64,000 nt of DNA from Escherichia coli (GTDB lineage Bacteria > Pseudomonadota > Gammaproteobacteria > Enterobacterales > Enterobacteriaceae). The notes below the pieces were generated by a model. That model searched no databases and was not told the DNA's origin. It was given only the letters and a program-made list of their open reading frames with translations. Location of the stretch: the NCBI RefSeq assembly GCF_016026235.1, contig NZ_CP065613.1; one strand, 5' to 3'. Both the position numbers and the translations under genes were made by a program. Positions 3,724 to 35,629 of this stretch are shown one piece after another (position 1 is the stretch's first letter; every line of letters begins with the position of its first letter).

Positions 3724-4920
3724 CTACTGTGGTGGGTTGTTCTGCAACGTTAACATCAAACCGTCGCGACGCATCGCTGCAGCTTCTTCCGGCTTGTGCA
3801 GTCTGTCCAGCGCGTCGGCAAGCCATGCGTAATCGTAGGCGTCCGGACGTTGTTTCAGCGCCGCGCGGAAGGCGAGCGATGCTTCCTGCCATTCTCCGTG
3901 CTTCATCAGTGACTGGCCCAGTGTGCTCCACAACAGCGGGCGATCGCCGACGTTTTTGATCTGCTGGCGCAGCACTTTTTCCAGCTGTTCCGGATTGTTG
4001 GTTTTCAGTCGAGGAATCGGCAGCAGTAGGCGATCGTCGTACTGGCGTTTCAGGCCATCGATGATAATTTGCTGGGCAGTATCATGATCGTCACATTCAA
4101 TAAGATGTTCCGCCATTGCCACCTGCAACGCTACCTGATGACGCGTTTTCCGGCTTTGGTTTTTCCACCAGTTACGCAAACCTTCACTACCGTTATCGGC
4201 ACGCGCCTGATCCATCAGGCCAATCCATGCCTGTTGTTCCAGCATTGCACGATGTTCTTCATCACCAACATGGGCTTTCGCCATTGATGGGATGATATCC
4301 AGCAGCGAACTCCATGCACCTGTGCGGATATACGCCTGTTCCGCCAGACGTAATACTTCCGGATGGCGTGGCGTAACTTCCAGCAGCTTATCCACGCCGT
4401 GGCGTGCAGCATGGTTTTCATTACGGGCCAGTTGCAGACGTACACGGGTGATTTCTACCGGAATGGTGTCATTGCCGGCCAGCTCTGCTGCGCGTTCCAG
4501 ATGTTGGTTGGCGCGTGCTTCATCACCACGTTGTTGCGCGGCTTCGGCAGCCAGTAGATAGTTCACCACCGGTTGTTCCGCGTGATCGGCATTTTTCGCC
4601 ATCAGCTTTTCAACTTGCTGATAATCGCCTTCCGCCAGTTTCAGCAGCGCCTGTTCGGTCTGCTTACGGGCACGGCGACGCTTACGTCCGACAAACCACC
4701 CACGGGTGTGTGCGCCTGTGCGGAAGATCCGCCGCAGTAGCCACTCAATGGCAAACAGCACTACCATCGCCAGAATCAAAATAATCGCCAGGCCCGTGAC
4801 GCTGGTTTCGATATTGTAGTTGTCAGTCTGGATCAGCACGTAACCCTGATGACCGGCAATCATCGGGCCAACCACTATCCCCGCAATCAGCAAAACAAAG
4901 AGTAATAACACTTTTAGCAT
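3724..4920 (-). CDS. hemY: HemY, inner membrane TPR-repeat protein of the heme pathway operon
   Basis: 398 aa ORF with N-terminal TM segments and TPR-like repeats; last gene of hemCDXY on minus strand. Confidence 0.9.
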   Translation of the reverse strand: MLKVLLLFVLLIAGIVVGPMIAGHQGYVLIQTDNYNIETSVTGLAIILILAMVVLFAIEWLLRRIFRTGAHTRGWFVGRKRRRARKQTEQALLKLAEGDYQQVEKLMAKNADHAEQPVVNYLLAAEAAQQRGDEARANQHLERAAELAGNDTIPVEITRVRLQLARNENHAARHGVDKLLEVTPRHPEVLRLAEQAYIRTGAWSSLLDIIPSMAKAHVGDEEHRAMLEQQAWIGLMDQARADNGSEGLRNWWKNQSRKTRHQVALQVAMAEHLIECDDHDTAQQIIIDGLKRQYDDRLLLPIPRLKTNNPEQLEKVLRQQIKNVGDRPLLWSTLGQSLMKHGEWQEASLAFRAALKQRPDAYDYAWLADALDRLHKPEEAAAMRRDGLMLTLQNNPPQ

Positions 4921-29485: not shown

Positions 29486-30508
29486 ATGTTTCAGCAGCAA
29501 AAAGACTGGGAAACAAGAGAAAACGCGTTTGCTGCTTTTACCATGGGACCGCTGACTGATTTCTGGCGTCAGCGTGATGAAGCAGAGTTTACTGGTGTGG
29601 ATGACATTCCGGTGCGCTTTGTCCGTTTTCGCGCACAGCACCATGACCGGGTGGTAGTCATCTGCCCGGGGCGTATTGAGAGCTACGTAAAATATGCGGA
29701 ACTGGCCTATGACCTGTTCCATTTGGGGTTTGATGTCTTAATCATCGACCATCGCGGGCAGGGACGTTCCGGTCGCCTGTTAGCCGATCCGCATCTCGGG
29801 CATGTTAATCGCTTTAATGATTATGTTGATGATCTGGCGGCATTCTGGCAGCAGGAGGTTCAGCCCGGTCCGTGGCGTAAACGCTATATACTGGCACATT
29901 CGATGGGCGGTGCGATCTCCACATTATTTCTGCAACGCCATCCAGGTGTATGTGACGCCATTGCGCTAACTGCGCCAATGTTTGGGATCGTGATTCGTAT
30001 GCCGTCATTTATGGCACGGCAGATCCTCAACTGGGCCGAAGCGCATCCACGTTTCCGTGATGGCTATGCAATAGGCACCGGGCGCTGGCGCGCGTTGCCG
30101 TTTGCTATCAACGTACTGACCCACAGCAGACAGCGATATCGACGTAACTTACGCTTCTATGCTGATGACCCAACGATTCGCGTCGGTGGGCCGACCTACC
30201 ATTGGGTACGCGAAAGTATTCTGGCTGGCGAACAGGTGTTAGCCGGTGCGGGTGATGACGCCACGCCAACGCTTCTCTTACAAGCTGAAGAGGAACGCGT
30301 GGTGGATAACCGCATGCATGACCGTTTTTGTGAACTCCGCACCGCCGCGGGCCATCCTGTCGAAGGAGGACGACCGTTGGTAATTAAAGGTGCTTACCAT
30401 GAGATCCTTTTTGAAAAGGACGCAATGCGCTCAGTCGCGCTCCACGCCATTGTTGATTTTTTCAACAGGCATAACTCACCCAGCGGAAACCGCTCTACAG
30501 AGGTTTAA
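29486..30508 (+). CDS. pldB: Lysophospholipase L2
   Basis: 340 aa alpha/beta hydrolase with GHSMGG nucleophile elbow. Confidence 0.92.
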   Translation: MFQQQKDWETRENAFAAFTMGPLTDFWRQRDEAEFTGVDDIPVRFVRFRAQHHDRVVVICPGRIESYVKYAELAYDLFHLGFDVLIIDHRGQGRSGRLLADPHLGHVNRFNDYVDDLAAFWQQEVQPGPWRKRYILAHSMGGAISTLFLQRHPGVCDAIALTAPMFGIVIRMPSFMARQILNWAEAHPRFRDGYAIGTGRWRALPFAINVLTHSRQRYRRNLRFYADDPTIRVGGPTYHWVRESILAGEQVLAGAGDDATPTLLLQAEEERVVDNRMHDRFCELRTAAGHPVEGGRPLVIKGAYHEILFEKDAMRSVALHAIVDFFNRHNSPSGNRSTEV

Positions 30509-30515
30509 ATTTCTT

Positions 30516-31316
30516 ATGTACCAGGTTGTTGCGTCTGATTTAGATGGCACGTTACTTTCTCCCGACCATACGTTATCCCCTTACGCCAAAGAAACTCTGA
30601 AGCTGCTCACCGCGCGCGGCATCAACTTTGTGTTTGCGACCGGTCGTCACCACGTTGATGTGGGGCAAATTCGCGATAATCTGGAGATTAAGTCTTACAT
30701 GATTACCTCCAATGGTGCGCGCGTTCACGATCTGGATGGTAATCTGATTTTTGCTCATAACCTGGATCGCGACATTGCCAGCGATCTGTTTGGCGTAGTC
30801 AACGACAATCCGGACATCATTACTAACGTTTATCGCGACGACGAATGGTTTATGAATCGCCATCGCCCGGAAGAGATGCGCTTTTTTAAAGAAGCGGTGT
30901 TCAAATATGCGCTGTATGAGCCTGGATTACTGGAGCCGGAAGGCGTCAGCAAAGTGTTCTTCACCTGCGATTCCCATGAACAACTGCTGCCGCTGGAGCA
31001 GGCGATTAACGCTCGTTGGGGCGATCGCGTCAACGTCAGTTTCTCTACCTTAACCTGTCTGGAAGTGATGGCGGGCGGCGTTTCAAAAGGCCATGCGCTG
31101 GAAGCGGTGGCGAAGAAACTGGGCTACAGCCTGAAGGATTGTATTGCGTTTGGTGACGGGATGAACGACGCCGAAATGCTGTCGATGGCGGGGAAAGGCT
31201 GCATTATGGGCAGTGCGCACCAGCGTCTGAAAGACCTTCATCCCGAGCTGGAAGTGATTGGTACTAATGCCGACGACGCGGTGCCGCATTATCTGCGTAA
31301 ACTCTATTTATCGTAA
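30516..31316 (+). CDS. yigL: HAD-family sugar phosphatase (Cof subfamily) (266 aa from ATG 30516; ORF track over-extends to 30390)
   Basis: MYQVVASDLDGTLLSPDH... with DxD HAD motif. Confidence 0.92.
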   Translation: MYQVVASDLDGTLLSPDHTLSPYAKETLKLLTARGINFVFATGRHHVDVGQIRDNLEIKSYMITSNGARVHDLDGNLIFAHNLDRDIASDLFGVVNDNPDIITNVYRDDEWFMNRHRPEEMRFFKEAVFKYALYEPGLLEPEGVSKVFFTCDSHEQLLPLEQAINARWGDRVNVSFSTLTCLEVMAGGVSKGHALEAVAKKLGYSLKDCIAFGDGMNDAEMLSMAGKGCIMGSAHQRLKDLHPELEVIGTNADDAVPHYLRKLYLS

Positions 31317-31391
31317 TCGTTCTTTATTTGGTCAGTTGTCAACCTGATACTTCGCTACAATGGATACTCGTTAATCAAAGAGTTTTCCATT

Positions 31392-32291
31392 GTGGCGCTA
31401 CTTATCATCACCACGATTCTGTGGGCCTTCTCCTTTAGCTTTTATGGCGAGTACCTTGCGGGGCACGTCGATAGCTATTTTGCGGTGCTGGTGCGCGTTG
31501 GCCTGGCGGCACTCGTTTTTCTGCCGTTTCTGCGTACCCGTGGCAATAGCCTGAAAACAGTCGGCCTGTATATGCTGGTGGGCGCGATGCAGCTTGGCGT
31601 GATGTATATGCTGAGTTTCCGCGCTTATCTCTATCTGACGGTTTCCGAACTGCTGCTGTTCACCGTACTGACGCCGCTCTACATCACGCTGATTTATGAC
31701 ATCATGAGTAAGCGCCGTCTGCGCTGGGGATATGCTTTTAGTGCCTTGTTGGCGGTGATTGGTGCCGGGATTATTCGCTATGATCAGGTCACCGACCATT
31801 TCTGGACTGGCTTGTTGCTGGTGCAACTCTCCAATATCACTTTTGCCATCGGCATGGTGGGTTACAAACGCCTGATGGAAACTCGCCCGATGCCGCAGCA
31901 TAACGCCTTTGCGTGGTTCTATCTTGGCGCGTTCCTGGTGGCGGTAATTGCATGGTTCTTGCTGGGAAATGCGCAGAAAATGCCGCAAACCACGTTGCAA
32001 TGGGGCATTCTGGTGTTTCTTGGCGTAGTGGCTTCCGGGATTGGCTACTTTATGTGGAACTACGGCGCGACGCAGGTGGACGCCGGAACGCTGGGAATTA
32101 TGAATAATATGCACGTTCCGGCAGGGCTGCTGGTAAACCTGGCTATCTGGCACCAACAGCCGCACTGGCCAACGTTTATTACAGGCGCGCTGGTGATCCT
32201 GGCCTCACTGTGGGTGCATCGTAAGTGGGTCGCTCCGCGCTCTTCACAAACGGCAGATGATCGCAGGCGTGATTGCGCGCTGAGCGAATAA
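31392..32291 (+). CDS. yigM: DMT-family inner membrane transporter (biotin uptake in K-12)
   Basis: 299 aa 10-TM ORF; 3' end overlaps the 3' end of convergent metR. Confidence 0.85.
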
Positions 32292-33132
32292 ACGCTTCCG
32301 TAACTGGCTGACGCTGCTCGCCATCGCGCACGGCGGCGTACAGTCGGCTCCACAAGCCTTCGCCCAGGGTTTTGGTCACCACCAGACCCTGGCGCTCAAA
32401 ACTCTCTACTACCCAATGCGGTAGCGCGGCAATACCCATCCGCGCGGCAACCATCTGAATCAACAATAAGGTGTTATCGACGCTTTTTAGTGACGGACTG
32501 ACGCCTGCCGGCTGAAGAAAATGCCGCCAGACATCCAGTCGACTACGCTGCACCGGATAAATTAATAGCGTCTCGCTGGCGAGATCTTCCGGTGTAATAC
32601 GCGTTTTTGCCGCCAGTGGATGGTCAGGTGCTAACACCAGACGCACTTCATAGTCGAACATCGGCGAATAATGCAGACCACTGCGCGGCAGAATATCGGA
32701 CGTCATTACCAGATCCAGCTCTCCCTGTTGCAAGGCGGGCTGCGGGTCAAATGTCACGCCCGATTTAAAGTCCATCTCGACCTGCGGCCAGTTCTTATGG
32801 AAATTTTCTAACGCGGGCGTCAGCCACTGTATACAGCTATGGCACTCAATGGCAATGCGCAGACGCGTCTGCTGCGGTTCATTGCAGGCTTGCAGTGCCT
32901 GGCTAATTTGTGGCAGCACCTGGTTTGCCAGTTGCAACAGGATTTCTCCCTGCGGTGTAAAGCGAAGCGGCTGGCTTTTACGCACAAATAGCCGGAAGCC
33001 AAGGCGTTGTTCCAGATCGCTAAACTGGTGAGACAGGGCGGATTGCGTCTGATGCAACGTCGCCGCAGCGGCTGCGAGAGAGCCGCAGTTCCGCAACGCT
33101 TGTAGCGTTTTCAGGTGTTTTACTTCGATCAT
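32179..33132 (-). CDS. metR: LysR-type transcriptional activator MetR
   Basis: 317 aa; N-terminal HTH ([36 protein letters not shown]); divergent from metE. Confidence 0.95.
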
Positions 33133-33204
33133 GAAAGTCCTTCACTTCGGCATGAATAATTTGCGCTTGAGGAATATACAGTAACCGCCAATTATGGATG
33201 TGTA

Positions 33205-33240
33205 AACATCTGGACGGCTAAAATCCTTCGTCTTTTAAAT
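33205..33240. promoter_or_regulatory. Candidate MetJ operator (tandem met-box-like repeats) in the metR-metE control region
   Basis: CATCTGGACGGCTAAAATCCTTCGTCTTTT contains 8 bp units resembling the AGACGTCT met box; placement by eye only. Confidence 0.3.
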
Positions 33241-33367
33241 TTATGGTGCGTTGGCTGCGTTTCTCCACCCCGGTCACTTACTTCAGTAAGCTCCCGGGGA
33301 TGAATAAACTTGCCGCCTTCCCTAAATTCAAAATCCATAGTATTTACATATAATTAGAGGAAGAAAA

Positions 33368-35629
33368 ATGACAATATTGAATCACACCCTCGGTTTCCCT
33401 CGCGTTGGCCTGCGTCGCGAGCTGAAAAAAGCGCAAGAGAGTTATTGGGCAGGGAACTCCACGCGTGAAGAACTGCTGGCGGTAGGGCGTGAATTGCGTG
33501 CTCGTCACTGGGATCAACAAAAGCAAGCGGGTATCGACCTGCTGCCGGTGGGCGATTTTGCCTGGTACGATCATGTACTGACCACCAGTTTGCTGCTGGG
33601 TAATGTTCCGCCACGTCATCAGAACAAAGACGGTTCGGTAGATATCGACACCCTGTTCCGTATTGGTCGTGGACGTGCGCCGACTGGCGAACCTGCGGCG
33701 GCAGCGGAAATGACCAAATGGTTTAACACCAACTATCACTACATGGTGCCGGAGTTCGTTAAAGGCCAACAGTTCAAACTGACCTGGACGCAGCTGCTGG
33801 AGGAAGTGGACGAGGCGCTGGTGCTGGGCCACAACGTTAAGCCTGTGCTGCTGGGGCCGGTTACTTACCTGTGGCTGGGGAAAGTGAAAGGTGAACAGTT
33901 TGACCGCCTTAGCCTGCTGAACGACATTCTGCCGGTTTATCAGCAAGTGCTGGCAGAACTGGCGAAACGCGGCATCGAGTGGGTACAGATTGATGAACCC
34001 GCGCTGGTACTGGAACTACCACAGGCGTGGCTGGACGCATACAAACCCGCTTACGACGCGCTCCAGGGACAGGTGAAACTGCTGCTGACCACCTATTTTG
34101 AAGGCGTAACGCCAAATCTCGACACGATTACTGCGCTGCCTGTTCAGGGTCTGCATGTTGACCTCGTACATGGTAAAGATGACGTTGCTGAACTGCACAA
34201 GCGCCTGCCTTCTGACTGGTTGCTGTCTGCGGGTCTGATCAATGGTCGTAACGTCTGGCGCGCCGATCTTACCGAGAAATATGCGCAAATTAAGGACATT
34301 GTCGGCAAACGTGATTTATGGGTGGCATCTTCCTGCTCGTTGCTGCACAGCCCCATCGACCTGAGCGTGGAAACGCGTCTTGATGCAGAAGTGAAAAGCT
34401 GGTTTGCCTTCGCCCTGCAAAAATGTCATGAACTGGCACTGCTGCGAGATGCGCTGAACAGTGGTGATACGGCAGCTCTGGCAGAGTGGAGCGCTCCAAT
34501 TCAGGCGCGTCGTCACTCTACTCGTGTACATAACCCGGCAGTAGAAAAGCGTCTGGCGGCGATCACCGCCCAGGACAGCCAGCGTGCGAATGTCTATGAA
34601 GTGCGTGCCGAAGCCCAGCGTGCGCGTTTTAAACTGCCAGCGTGGCCGACCACCACGATTGGTTCCTTCCCGCAAACCACGGAAATTCGTACCCTGCGTC
34701 TGGATTTCAAAAAGGGTAATCTCGACGCCAACAACTACCGCACGGGCATTGCGGAACATATCAAGCAGGCCATTGTTGAACAGGAACGTTTGGGACTGGA
34801 TGTGCTGGTACATGGCGAGGCCGAGCGTAATGACATGGTGGAATACTTTGGCGAGCACCTCGACGGATTTGTCTTTACGCAAAACGGTTGGGTACAGAGC
34901 TACGGTTCCCGCTGCGTGAAGCCACCGATTGTCATTGGTGACATTAGCCGCCCGGCACCGATTACCGTGGAGTGGGCGAAGTATGCGCAATCTCTGACTG
35001 ATAAACCGGTGAAAGGGATGCTGACTGGCCCGGTGACCATTCTCTGCTGGTCGTTCCCGCGTGAAGATGTCAGCCGTGAAACCATCGCCAAACAAATTGC
35101 GCTGGCGCTGCGTGATGAAGTGGCGGACCTGGAAGCCGCAGGAATTGGCATCATCCAGATTGATGAACCGGCGCTGCGCGAAGGTTTACCGCTGCGTCGT
35201 AGCGACTGGGATGCATATCTCCAGTGGGGCGTGGAGGCCTTCCGTATCAACGCCGCCGTGGCGAAAGATGACACACAAATCCACACTCACATGTGTTATT
35301 GCGAGTTCAACGACATCATGGATTCGATTGCGGCACTGGATGCAGACGTCATCACCATCGAAACCTCGCGTTCCGACATGGAGTTGCTGGAGTCGTTTGA
35401 AGAGTTTGATTATCCGAATGAAATCGGTCCAGGCGTCTATGACATTCACTCGCCAAACGTACCGAGCGTGGAATGGATTGAAGCCTTGCTGAAGAAAGCG
35501 GCAAAACGCATTCCGGCAGAGCGCCTGTGGGTCAACCCGGACTGTGGCCTGAAAACGCGCGGCTGGCCAGAAACCCGCGCGGCACTGGCGAACATGGTGC
35601 AGGCGGCGCAGAATTTGCGTCGGGGATGA
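33368..35629 (+). CDS. metE: Cobalamin-independent methionine synthase
   Basis: 753 aa; starts [24 protein letters not shown]...; C-terminal zinc-binding His/Cys/Glu motifs. Confidence 0.96.

Follow-up and report, generated by a model that had tools for sequence, protein, structure and literature searches.

The window analysed here, a stretch of 64,000 nucleotides from Escherichia coli, carries two convergent genes, yigM (bioP) and metR, whose coding sequences run into one another at their 3' ends:

31392..32291, + strand: yigM (bioP) coding sequence; GTG start, 299 aa, TAA stop at 32289-32291 (ORF and RefSeq)
32179..33132, - strand: metR coding sequence; 317 aa, TAA stop read from 32181 to 32179 (ORF and RefSeq)
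32179..32291: convergent yigM/metR overlap; 113 bp, a length of 2 mod 3

The coordinates, the gene identities and the 113-bp length had been proposed in a preliminary description made from the sequence alone and were all borne out by the ORF listing, the sequence and RefSeq. In the RefSeq annotation of FDAARGOS_943, in which the locus is 100% identical over 1.9 kb, bioP and metR carry the identical 113-bp overlap; it is likewise annotated in the RefSeq record of MG1655 (bioP 4011076-4011975, metR 4011863-4012816). Of 5426 complete E. coli genomes, 5423 contain the locus.

YigM is a biotin transporter of the EamA/DMT type and MetR a LysR-type regulator, according to Pfam, RefSeq and the papers cited here. 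The identification of YigM as the E. coli biotin transporter dates to Ringlstetter 2010 and Finkenwirth et al. 2013, and biotin transport by YigM is documented by Finkenwirth et al. 2013 (PMC4049904) and Cote et al. 2016 (PMC5120140). The Pfam EamA match extends up to residue 275 of YigM; in MetR, residues 5-63 match HTH_1 and residues 86-288 match LysR_substrate. The AlphaFold model of YigM (mean pLDDT 88.6) consists mostly of long helices, the final one beginning at residue 259; the pLDDT is 85-87 over residues 261-280, then 60 and 53 across residues 281-299. For MetR, PDB entry 5fo5 covers residues 1-92 of the E. coli protein, and the regulatory domain of a Neisseria LysR-family (MetR-like) protein (4ab5/4ab6) aligned with MetR through V296. 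Each of the two overlapping ORFs is a real gene with an assigned function. The overlap itself is already known, being both annotated and published: it was remarked on by Cote et al. 2016 in mBio (PMC5120140), who also found that a metR deletion mutant resembles a yigM mutant in its behaviour towards a BioA inhibitor. That study was conducted without an analysis of the partition of selection, of the distribution of the overlap or of transcript ends.

To describe the distribution of the overlap, contigs were scanned with one genome per species, giving 80 loci, all from Enterobacteriaceae, to which the window and the FDAARGOS_943 locus were added. Its length is 113 bp in the window and in 73 of the Enterobacteriaceae species loci; 7 loci have 116 bp and 1 has 98 bp. 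Of the 81 Enterobacteriaceae species loci, 80 keep the overlap, at 98-116 bp; L066, in which metR is disrupted, is the one that does not. YigM has 299 codons across these loci, with the qualification that in L026 the stop falls at yigM codon 285; the metR stop occurs earlier in L033. The exceptional L066 (Leclercia adecarboxylata NCTC13032) has an apparently frameshifted metR at about 3814-4741, reflecting a pseudogene or an assembly error, and only a 52%-identity partial match with an unrelated C-terminal translation was recovered from it. Loci beyond Enterobacteriaceae were reached via representative proteins and exact-protein look-ups, with one verified locus apiece for Erwiniaceae, the Serratia clade, Pectobacterium and Yersinia:

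Yersinia: YigM 299 aa, MetR 317 aa, 113-bp overlap
Pectobacterium: YigM 299 aa, MetR 311 aa, 95-bp overlap
Dickeya-like contig: YigM 299 aa, MetR 312 aa, 98-bp overlap
Serratia marcescens: YigM 286 aa, MetR 314 aa, 36-bp gap, overlap absent
Erwinia toletana: YigM 287 aa, MetR 312 aa, DUF1456 gene in between, overlap absent
Vibrio and Microbulbifer YigM homologues (~50% identity): 292-294 aa, metR not adjacent

Serratia and Yersinia both belong to Yersiniaceae, and the Yersinia junction is exactly that of E. coli. Because of this exact match in a relative of Serratia, the overlap would be older than the split between Enterobacteriaceae, Pectobacteriaceae and Yersiniaceae, and the distribution suggests that it was secondarily lost at least twice. 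Precisely at the crossover point, Serratia has ~100 bp that Yersinia lacks. A tandem duplication of the overlap was considered as the event that separated the genes in Serratia and Erwinia and was rejected, since the yigM 3' end aligned locally with the metR tail region no better than shuffled sequences do (P = 0.56 and 0.81). A separate irregularity was seen in the Dickeya-like yigM (L082:556-1455, P0123), where residues ~205-245 are scrambled relative to all relatives as if by two compensating frameshifts, either through a Logan assembly error or because the gene is decaying.

Within the overlap, position 1 of the yigM codons faces position 1 of the metR codons, position 2 faces position 3 and position 3 faces position 2. 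A length of 2 mod 3 is termed 'phase 1' in a recent preprint and, according to that preprint, is the commonest class for non-trivial convergent overlaps. In this phase nearly every synonymous change in one gene alters the protein encoded by the other, a few synonymous first-position changes excepted. The 113 bp could be partitioned into three segments:

32179..32225: yigM-constrained segment; YigM 263-278, the end of helix 10, opposite the metR stop and MetR 303-317, a passenger tail
32226..32238: core in which both frames are constrained; YigM W279-V280-A281-P282 faces MetR A299-E300-R301-P302
32239..32291: metR-constrained segment; MetR 281-298, the last regulatory-domain helix and LPFV motif, opposite YigM 283-299 and its stop, a passenger tail

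This partition emerged from the entropy by codon position among 72 distinct sequences. Over 32179-32235 the entropy is 0.88 at yigM position 3 versus 0.21 at yigM position 2, and over 32236-32291 it is 0.69 at metR position 3 versus 0.15 at metR position 2; third positions in the non-overlapping flanks give 0.90-1.00. Across 32226-32238, the 72 sequences hardly vary at any of the three codon positions, and for YigM 279-282 and MetR 299-302 pN is ~0.01 and pS ~0.03 in both frames. The ratio pN/pS, computed from Nei-Gojobori proportions, changes along each gene as follows:

YigM 1-262: 0.145
YigM 264-278: 0.25
YigM 283-298: 1.81
MetR 1-280: 0.091
MetR 283-298: 0.16
MetR 303-317: 1.64

Compared with windows of equal size in the remainder of the same genes, the two tails have a pN (0.18 and 0.25) that reaches or exceeds the top 5%. 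The pS of the partner within the overlap is 0.43-0.47 versus 0.56-0.58 outside, a deficit of 20-25% that ranks near the 5th percentile of windows of that size. Purifying selection acting in both frames over the entire overlap failed this test, with dual constraint found only at 32226-32238. The suggestion that such an overlap constrains both genes thus applies to ~13 nt (32226-32238), whereas elsewhere entropy and pN/pS show the constraint to be one-sided. From these comparisons, the last 15-17 codons of each gene appear to evolve as passengers of the synonymous sites of the partner.

The ends of the conserved protein cores coincide with this partition. Homology of YigM to distant relatives runs out at query residues ~275-283, and YigM orthologues that do not overlap metR stop 4-8 residues past a conserved core that ends near residue 282; the Serratia protein (286 aa), for instance, terminates in ...WVHRRWVAPKQIG. 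The E. coli protein is 12-13 aa longer than these non-overlapping orthologues. MetR is kept everywhere up to the motif HLPFV(K/R)xAxRP, after which 10-15 variable residues follow. The tails of both proteins are wholly different in Serratia and Erwinia. Shorter variants occur naturally: YigM of 284 aa (a cluster of 42 sequences, and locus L026) and of 285 aa (Salmonella Gaminara, and a cluster of 66 sequences), and MetR of 310-312 aa. It had been raised as an alternative that the true C-terminus of yigM is shorter than the ORF suggests. As a statement about annotation this does not stand, the 299-codon ORF and its stop being alike in ~80 species and in Yersinia; it is nevertheless right in spirit, given that the core ends at ~282, that non-overlapping orthologues stop 4-8 residues later and that variants of 284 and 285 aa exist. 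Conservation of the YigM C-terminus is accordingly found for residues 263-282 and is missing from residues 283-298.

Each stop codon sits in a pair of conserved Phe-Ile codons of the partner, TTT ATT reading AAT AAA on the opposite strand. The TAA stop of yigM lies within the metR codons TTT ATT for F281-I282, and the metR stop lies within the yigM codons for F262-I263, where it alternates between TAA and TGA or is shifted by one codon among species. To estimate what chance would produce, the protein sequence of the partner was held fixed and synonymous codons were resampled. With MetR fixed, 59% of the trials gave a yigM frame that extended exactly 17 codons past P282, and 38% one that extended only 2; with YigM fixed, the metR frame extended 15 codons past P302 in 56% of the trials and 10 in another 36%. 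The observed tail lengths are therefore the modal outcomes of chance, and no selection is needed to account for the length of the overlap.

We consider it highly probable that two unrelated genes overlap here tail to tail, in a genuine and old arrangement that is structurally passive. In the lineage ancestral to Enterobacteriaceae, Pectobacteriaceae and Yersiniaceae, a fusion event would have set the conserved ends of the two genes directly against each other, without a spacer between them, transmembrane helix 10 and the WVAP motif of YigM meeting the last regulatory-domain helix and LPFVxxAxRP of MetR. Each frame would then read on, antisense to the conserved end of the partner, until the first stop that the partner protein permits, in the metR Phe281-Ile282 codons for yigM and in the yigM Phe262-Ile263 codons for metR. 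The outcome would be two short, mostly unselected tails (YigM 283-299 and MetR 303-317), the sequence of which is dictated by synonymous changes in the partner, with selection in both frames over ~13 nt only. Conserved ends that meet head-on leave no room for a terminator, so both transcripts must end inside the partner gene, most likely through the action of Rho on C-rich untranslated RNA after each stop, on the metR side putatively. We infer that the overlap has no regulatory role. A counterpoint to a passive overlap is that three families have kept it, possibly because it is of some benefit.

A few positions in the tails vary less than the rest. The context of the yigM stop, CGAATAAA (window 32284-32292), is the same in all but one of 84 overlapping-species loci. 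In the overlapping loci MetR F281 is always encoded by TTT and I282 always by ATT, the metR codon there being ATC in Serratia and GTG in Erwinia; as a result of these fixed codons, YigM E299 never changes while the rest of the YigM tail does. The invariant context could reflect a weak constraint on the C-terminal residue of YigM or on the stop context. On the other side, the synonymous sites of yigM V268, L270 and H276 (32193-32219), which face MetR S313, P311 and D305, are nearly invariant in the 72 sequences, which hints that a few positions of the MetR tail are under weak constraint. The tails may, on these sequence patterns, carry some weak constraint.

The region was also inspected for signals that could end transcription. 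A pattern scan detected no terminator-like site near the junction on either strand and none on the - strand over 31000-33500; a single weak + strand site, at 32885-32901, is far inside metR and below shuffle expectation. The 61-nt segments around both stops showed no unusual folding (z = -0.68 and -0.10), and an Rfam search gave no family match at the overlap. Outside it, in the metR-metE spacer, the Vibrio antisense RNA family V_AS5 gave a weak match (33224-33353, - strand; 22.8 bits versus a gathering threshold of 96, E = 0.099) that is most likely due to chance. Base composition indicated two candidate zones for Rho, the GC skew after both stops being rut-like and C-rich, G-poor RNA being the kind linked with Rho loading:

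32300..32500, + strand: candidate Rho loading/termination zone; C-rich, G-poor untranslated RNA past the yigM stop, antisense to metR, GC skew -0.14 to -0.28
31950..32150, - strand: putative Rho zone for metR transcripts, proposed from composition; C-rich RNA past the metR stop, antisense to yigM, + strand GC skew +0.20 to +0.30

Published data are available for the + strand. In their supplementary file 2, Adams et al. 2021 (PMC7815308) report a region of Rho termination on the + strand that is centred on MG1655 position 4011704, which corresponds to window position 32020, with a score of 5.07 and p = 1.3e-12 from 800-nt windows. Without bicyclomycin, + strand reads fall from 98 upstream to 21 downstream; with bicyclomycin they are 300 and 326 (PMC7815308). 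The best-scoring coordinate (window 32020, +) is inside yigM, 271 nt before the stop, at 800-nt resolution; if termination truly occurred inside the yigM ORF, some bioP transcripts would carry no stop codon. The supplements of Adams et al. list no Term-seq 3' end for bioP or metR and no Rho entry on the metR strand, and the PIRT-Seq publication makes no mention of bioP or metR. In the two lineages in which the genes are apart, hairpins follow the stops: Erwinia (L087:3365-3400) has a perfect 10-bp stem after yigM (-25.1 kcal/mol, z = -4.0, 0 of 200 shuffles as stable) and Serratia (L086:3362-3397) a stem of 8-11 bp in the 36-bp spacer, foldable on both strands (-19.7 kcal/mol, z about -2). Both post-stop hairpins are GC-rich and neither has a strong U tract. 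In E. coli the bioP and metR mRNAs are likely complementary at their 3' ends, because the geometry requires it if both mRNAs reach their stop codons; the missing terminator and the published Rho data agree with this.

Other explanations have to be weighed against a passive overlap. An error of annotation or sequencing, with a spurious 3' extension of yigM or metR of the 3'-end-extension class of Palleja et al. 2008, could be suspected from the 12-13 aa by which YigM exceeds orthologues without an overlap. A stop position cannot, however, be miscalled in the way that a start can, identical stops occur in ~80 species and in 5423 E. coli genomes with no frameshift needed, and both proteins align with their families up to the crossover point. 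Misannotation by 3'-end extension was rejected: the extension is neither lineage-specific nor caused by a frameshift, the same stops occur in ~80 species and Yersinia, and the ORFs of the window are intact. An artefact of this kind has next to no chance of being correct. True dual coding, in which both tails are functional peptides (a basic cytoplasmic tail in YigM, a partner contact in MetR) and the 113 bp are selected in both frames, draws on the lowered pS of the partner within the overlap, on the 299-aa length of YigM held in many genera, on the invariance of YigM E299 and near-invariance of R291, R293, Q286 and A296, and on the near-invariance of MetR D305, P307, P311 and S313. However, the constant tail length follows from stops fixed by the conserved Phe-Ile codons of the partner, and many of the tail residues that look 'conserved' lie opposite partner codons that are two-fold degenerate or non-degenerate. 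A tail pN/pS of 1.6-1.8, together with a pN that reaches or exceeds the top 5% of equally long windows, also argues against functional peptides, as do the completely different tails of Serratia and Erwinia and the natural proteins of 284/285 aa (YigM) and 310-312 aa (MetR), and we regard dual coding as unlikely.

The preliminary description had proposed antisense interference between the two messages, and such coupling in cis would mean that the absence of a terminator is itself selected and that convergent transcription, or a 3' duplex with RNase III, makes bioP and metR antagonistic. It is consistent with the lack of a terminator between the genes and with RNA past both stops that could lengthen the complementary region, with the limitation by Rho of + strand transcription into metR, and with the conservation of the arrangement across three families. 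The Keio metR deletion also phenocopies loss of yigM, an effect that a cassette reading into yigM could produce as well. More simply, we presume that this phenotype comes from physical truncation of yigM helix 10, given the standard Keio design. Constraint at the protein level and chance explain the full substitution pattern, and the overlap holds no RNA family and no unusual structure. A literature search gave no 3' ends, antisense RNA or expression anticorrelation for bioP and metR. Regulatory use of the complementary 3' ends is made less likely by Serratia and Erwinia, which independently uncoupled the two genes yet kept both, and antisense coupling in cis is in our estimation quite improbable. 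Biotin synthesis uses SAM at several steps. It could be imagined that the head-on layout without a terminator was kept since collision of the bioP and metR transcripts, or a duplex between them, links biotin uptake to the methionine/SAM regulon, with CGAATAAA and the weakly constrained tail positions forming an RNA-level signal; we hold this to be a very long shot.

Conserved long convergent gene overlaps in prokaryotes were reportedly described by Rogozin and colleagues in 2002. The yigM/metR overlap resembles that class in being tail-to-tail and longer than 60 bp, in joining two well-characterised genes through a 3' extension into the neighbour and in being kept in orthologous pairs; relative to the class, it spans at least three Enterobacterales families. 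Regulation of convergent genes by excludon-type or overlapping 3' UTR antisense RNA operates in Listeria and Staphylococcus. Those systems share with bioP/metR convergent genes, mRNAs complementary at their 3' ends and no terminator between; in them a reciprocal expression effect and RNase III processing have been demonstrated, whereas the likeness of bioP/metR is one of geometry alone and two lineages have dissolved it. The closest parallel for transcript ends is Rho termination of antisense transcripts (PMC7815308), to which the locus conforms in losing + strand signal, in a bicyclomycin-sensitive manner, over the 3' region of yigM and antisense to metR. Also shared is the C-rich RNA downstream, which lacks a hairpin terminator, with the match holding at 800-nt resolution and for the + strand only. 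The survey of Palleja et al. 2008 (PMC2478687) accepted long overlaps as possibly real for convergent genes alone (54 of 178), and the yigM/metR pair was not found named there. Few long convergent overlaps are genuine, and the one between yigM and metR is among them.

The significance of these results is mainly practical and leaves the current view of gene overlaps, and of biotin or methionine biology, unchanged. Both genes are harmed when bases are deleted or inserted within the final ~110 bp of either one. From the coordinates and the Keio design, the standard yigM deletion presumably likewise removes the conserved residues 288-302 of MetR. In selection scans, spurious 'positive selection' (pN/pS >1) would be called at both C-termini, a signal that is only synonymous drift in the partner. 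The locus can also serve as a teaching example of how a long convergent overlap can last long at little cost, the cost being low because the two constrained cores barely overlap. Upstream of yigM, the mechanical ORF of yigL (30390-31316, +; GTG start at 30390, 308 aa) overlaps pldB; in RefSeq the protein has 266 aa and starts 126 bp downstream (locus L001 717-1517), a difference that concerns the choice of start codon only.
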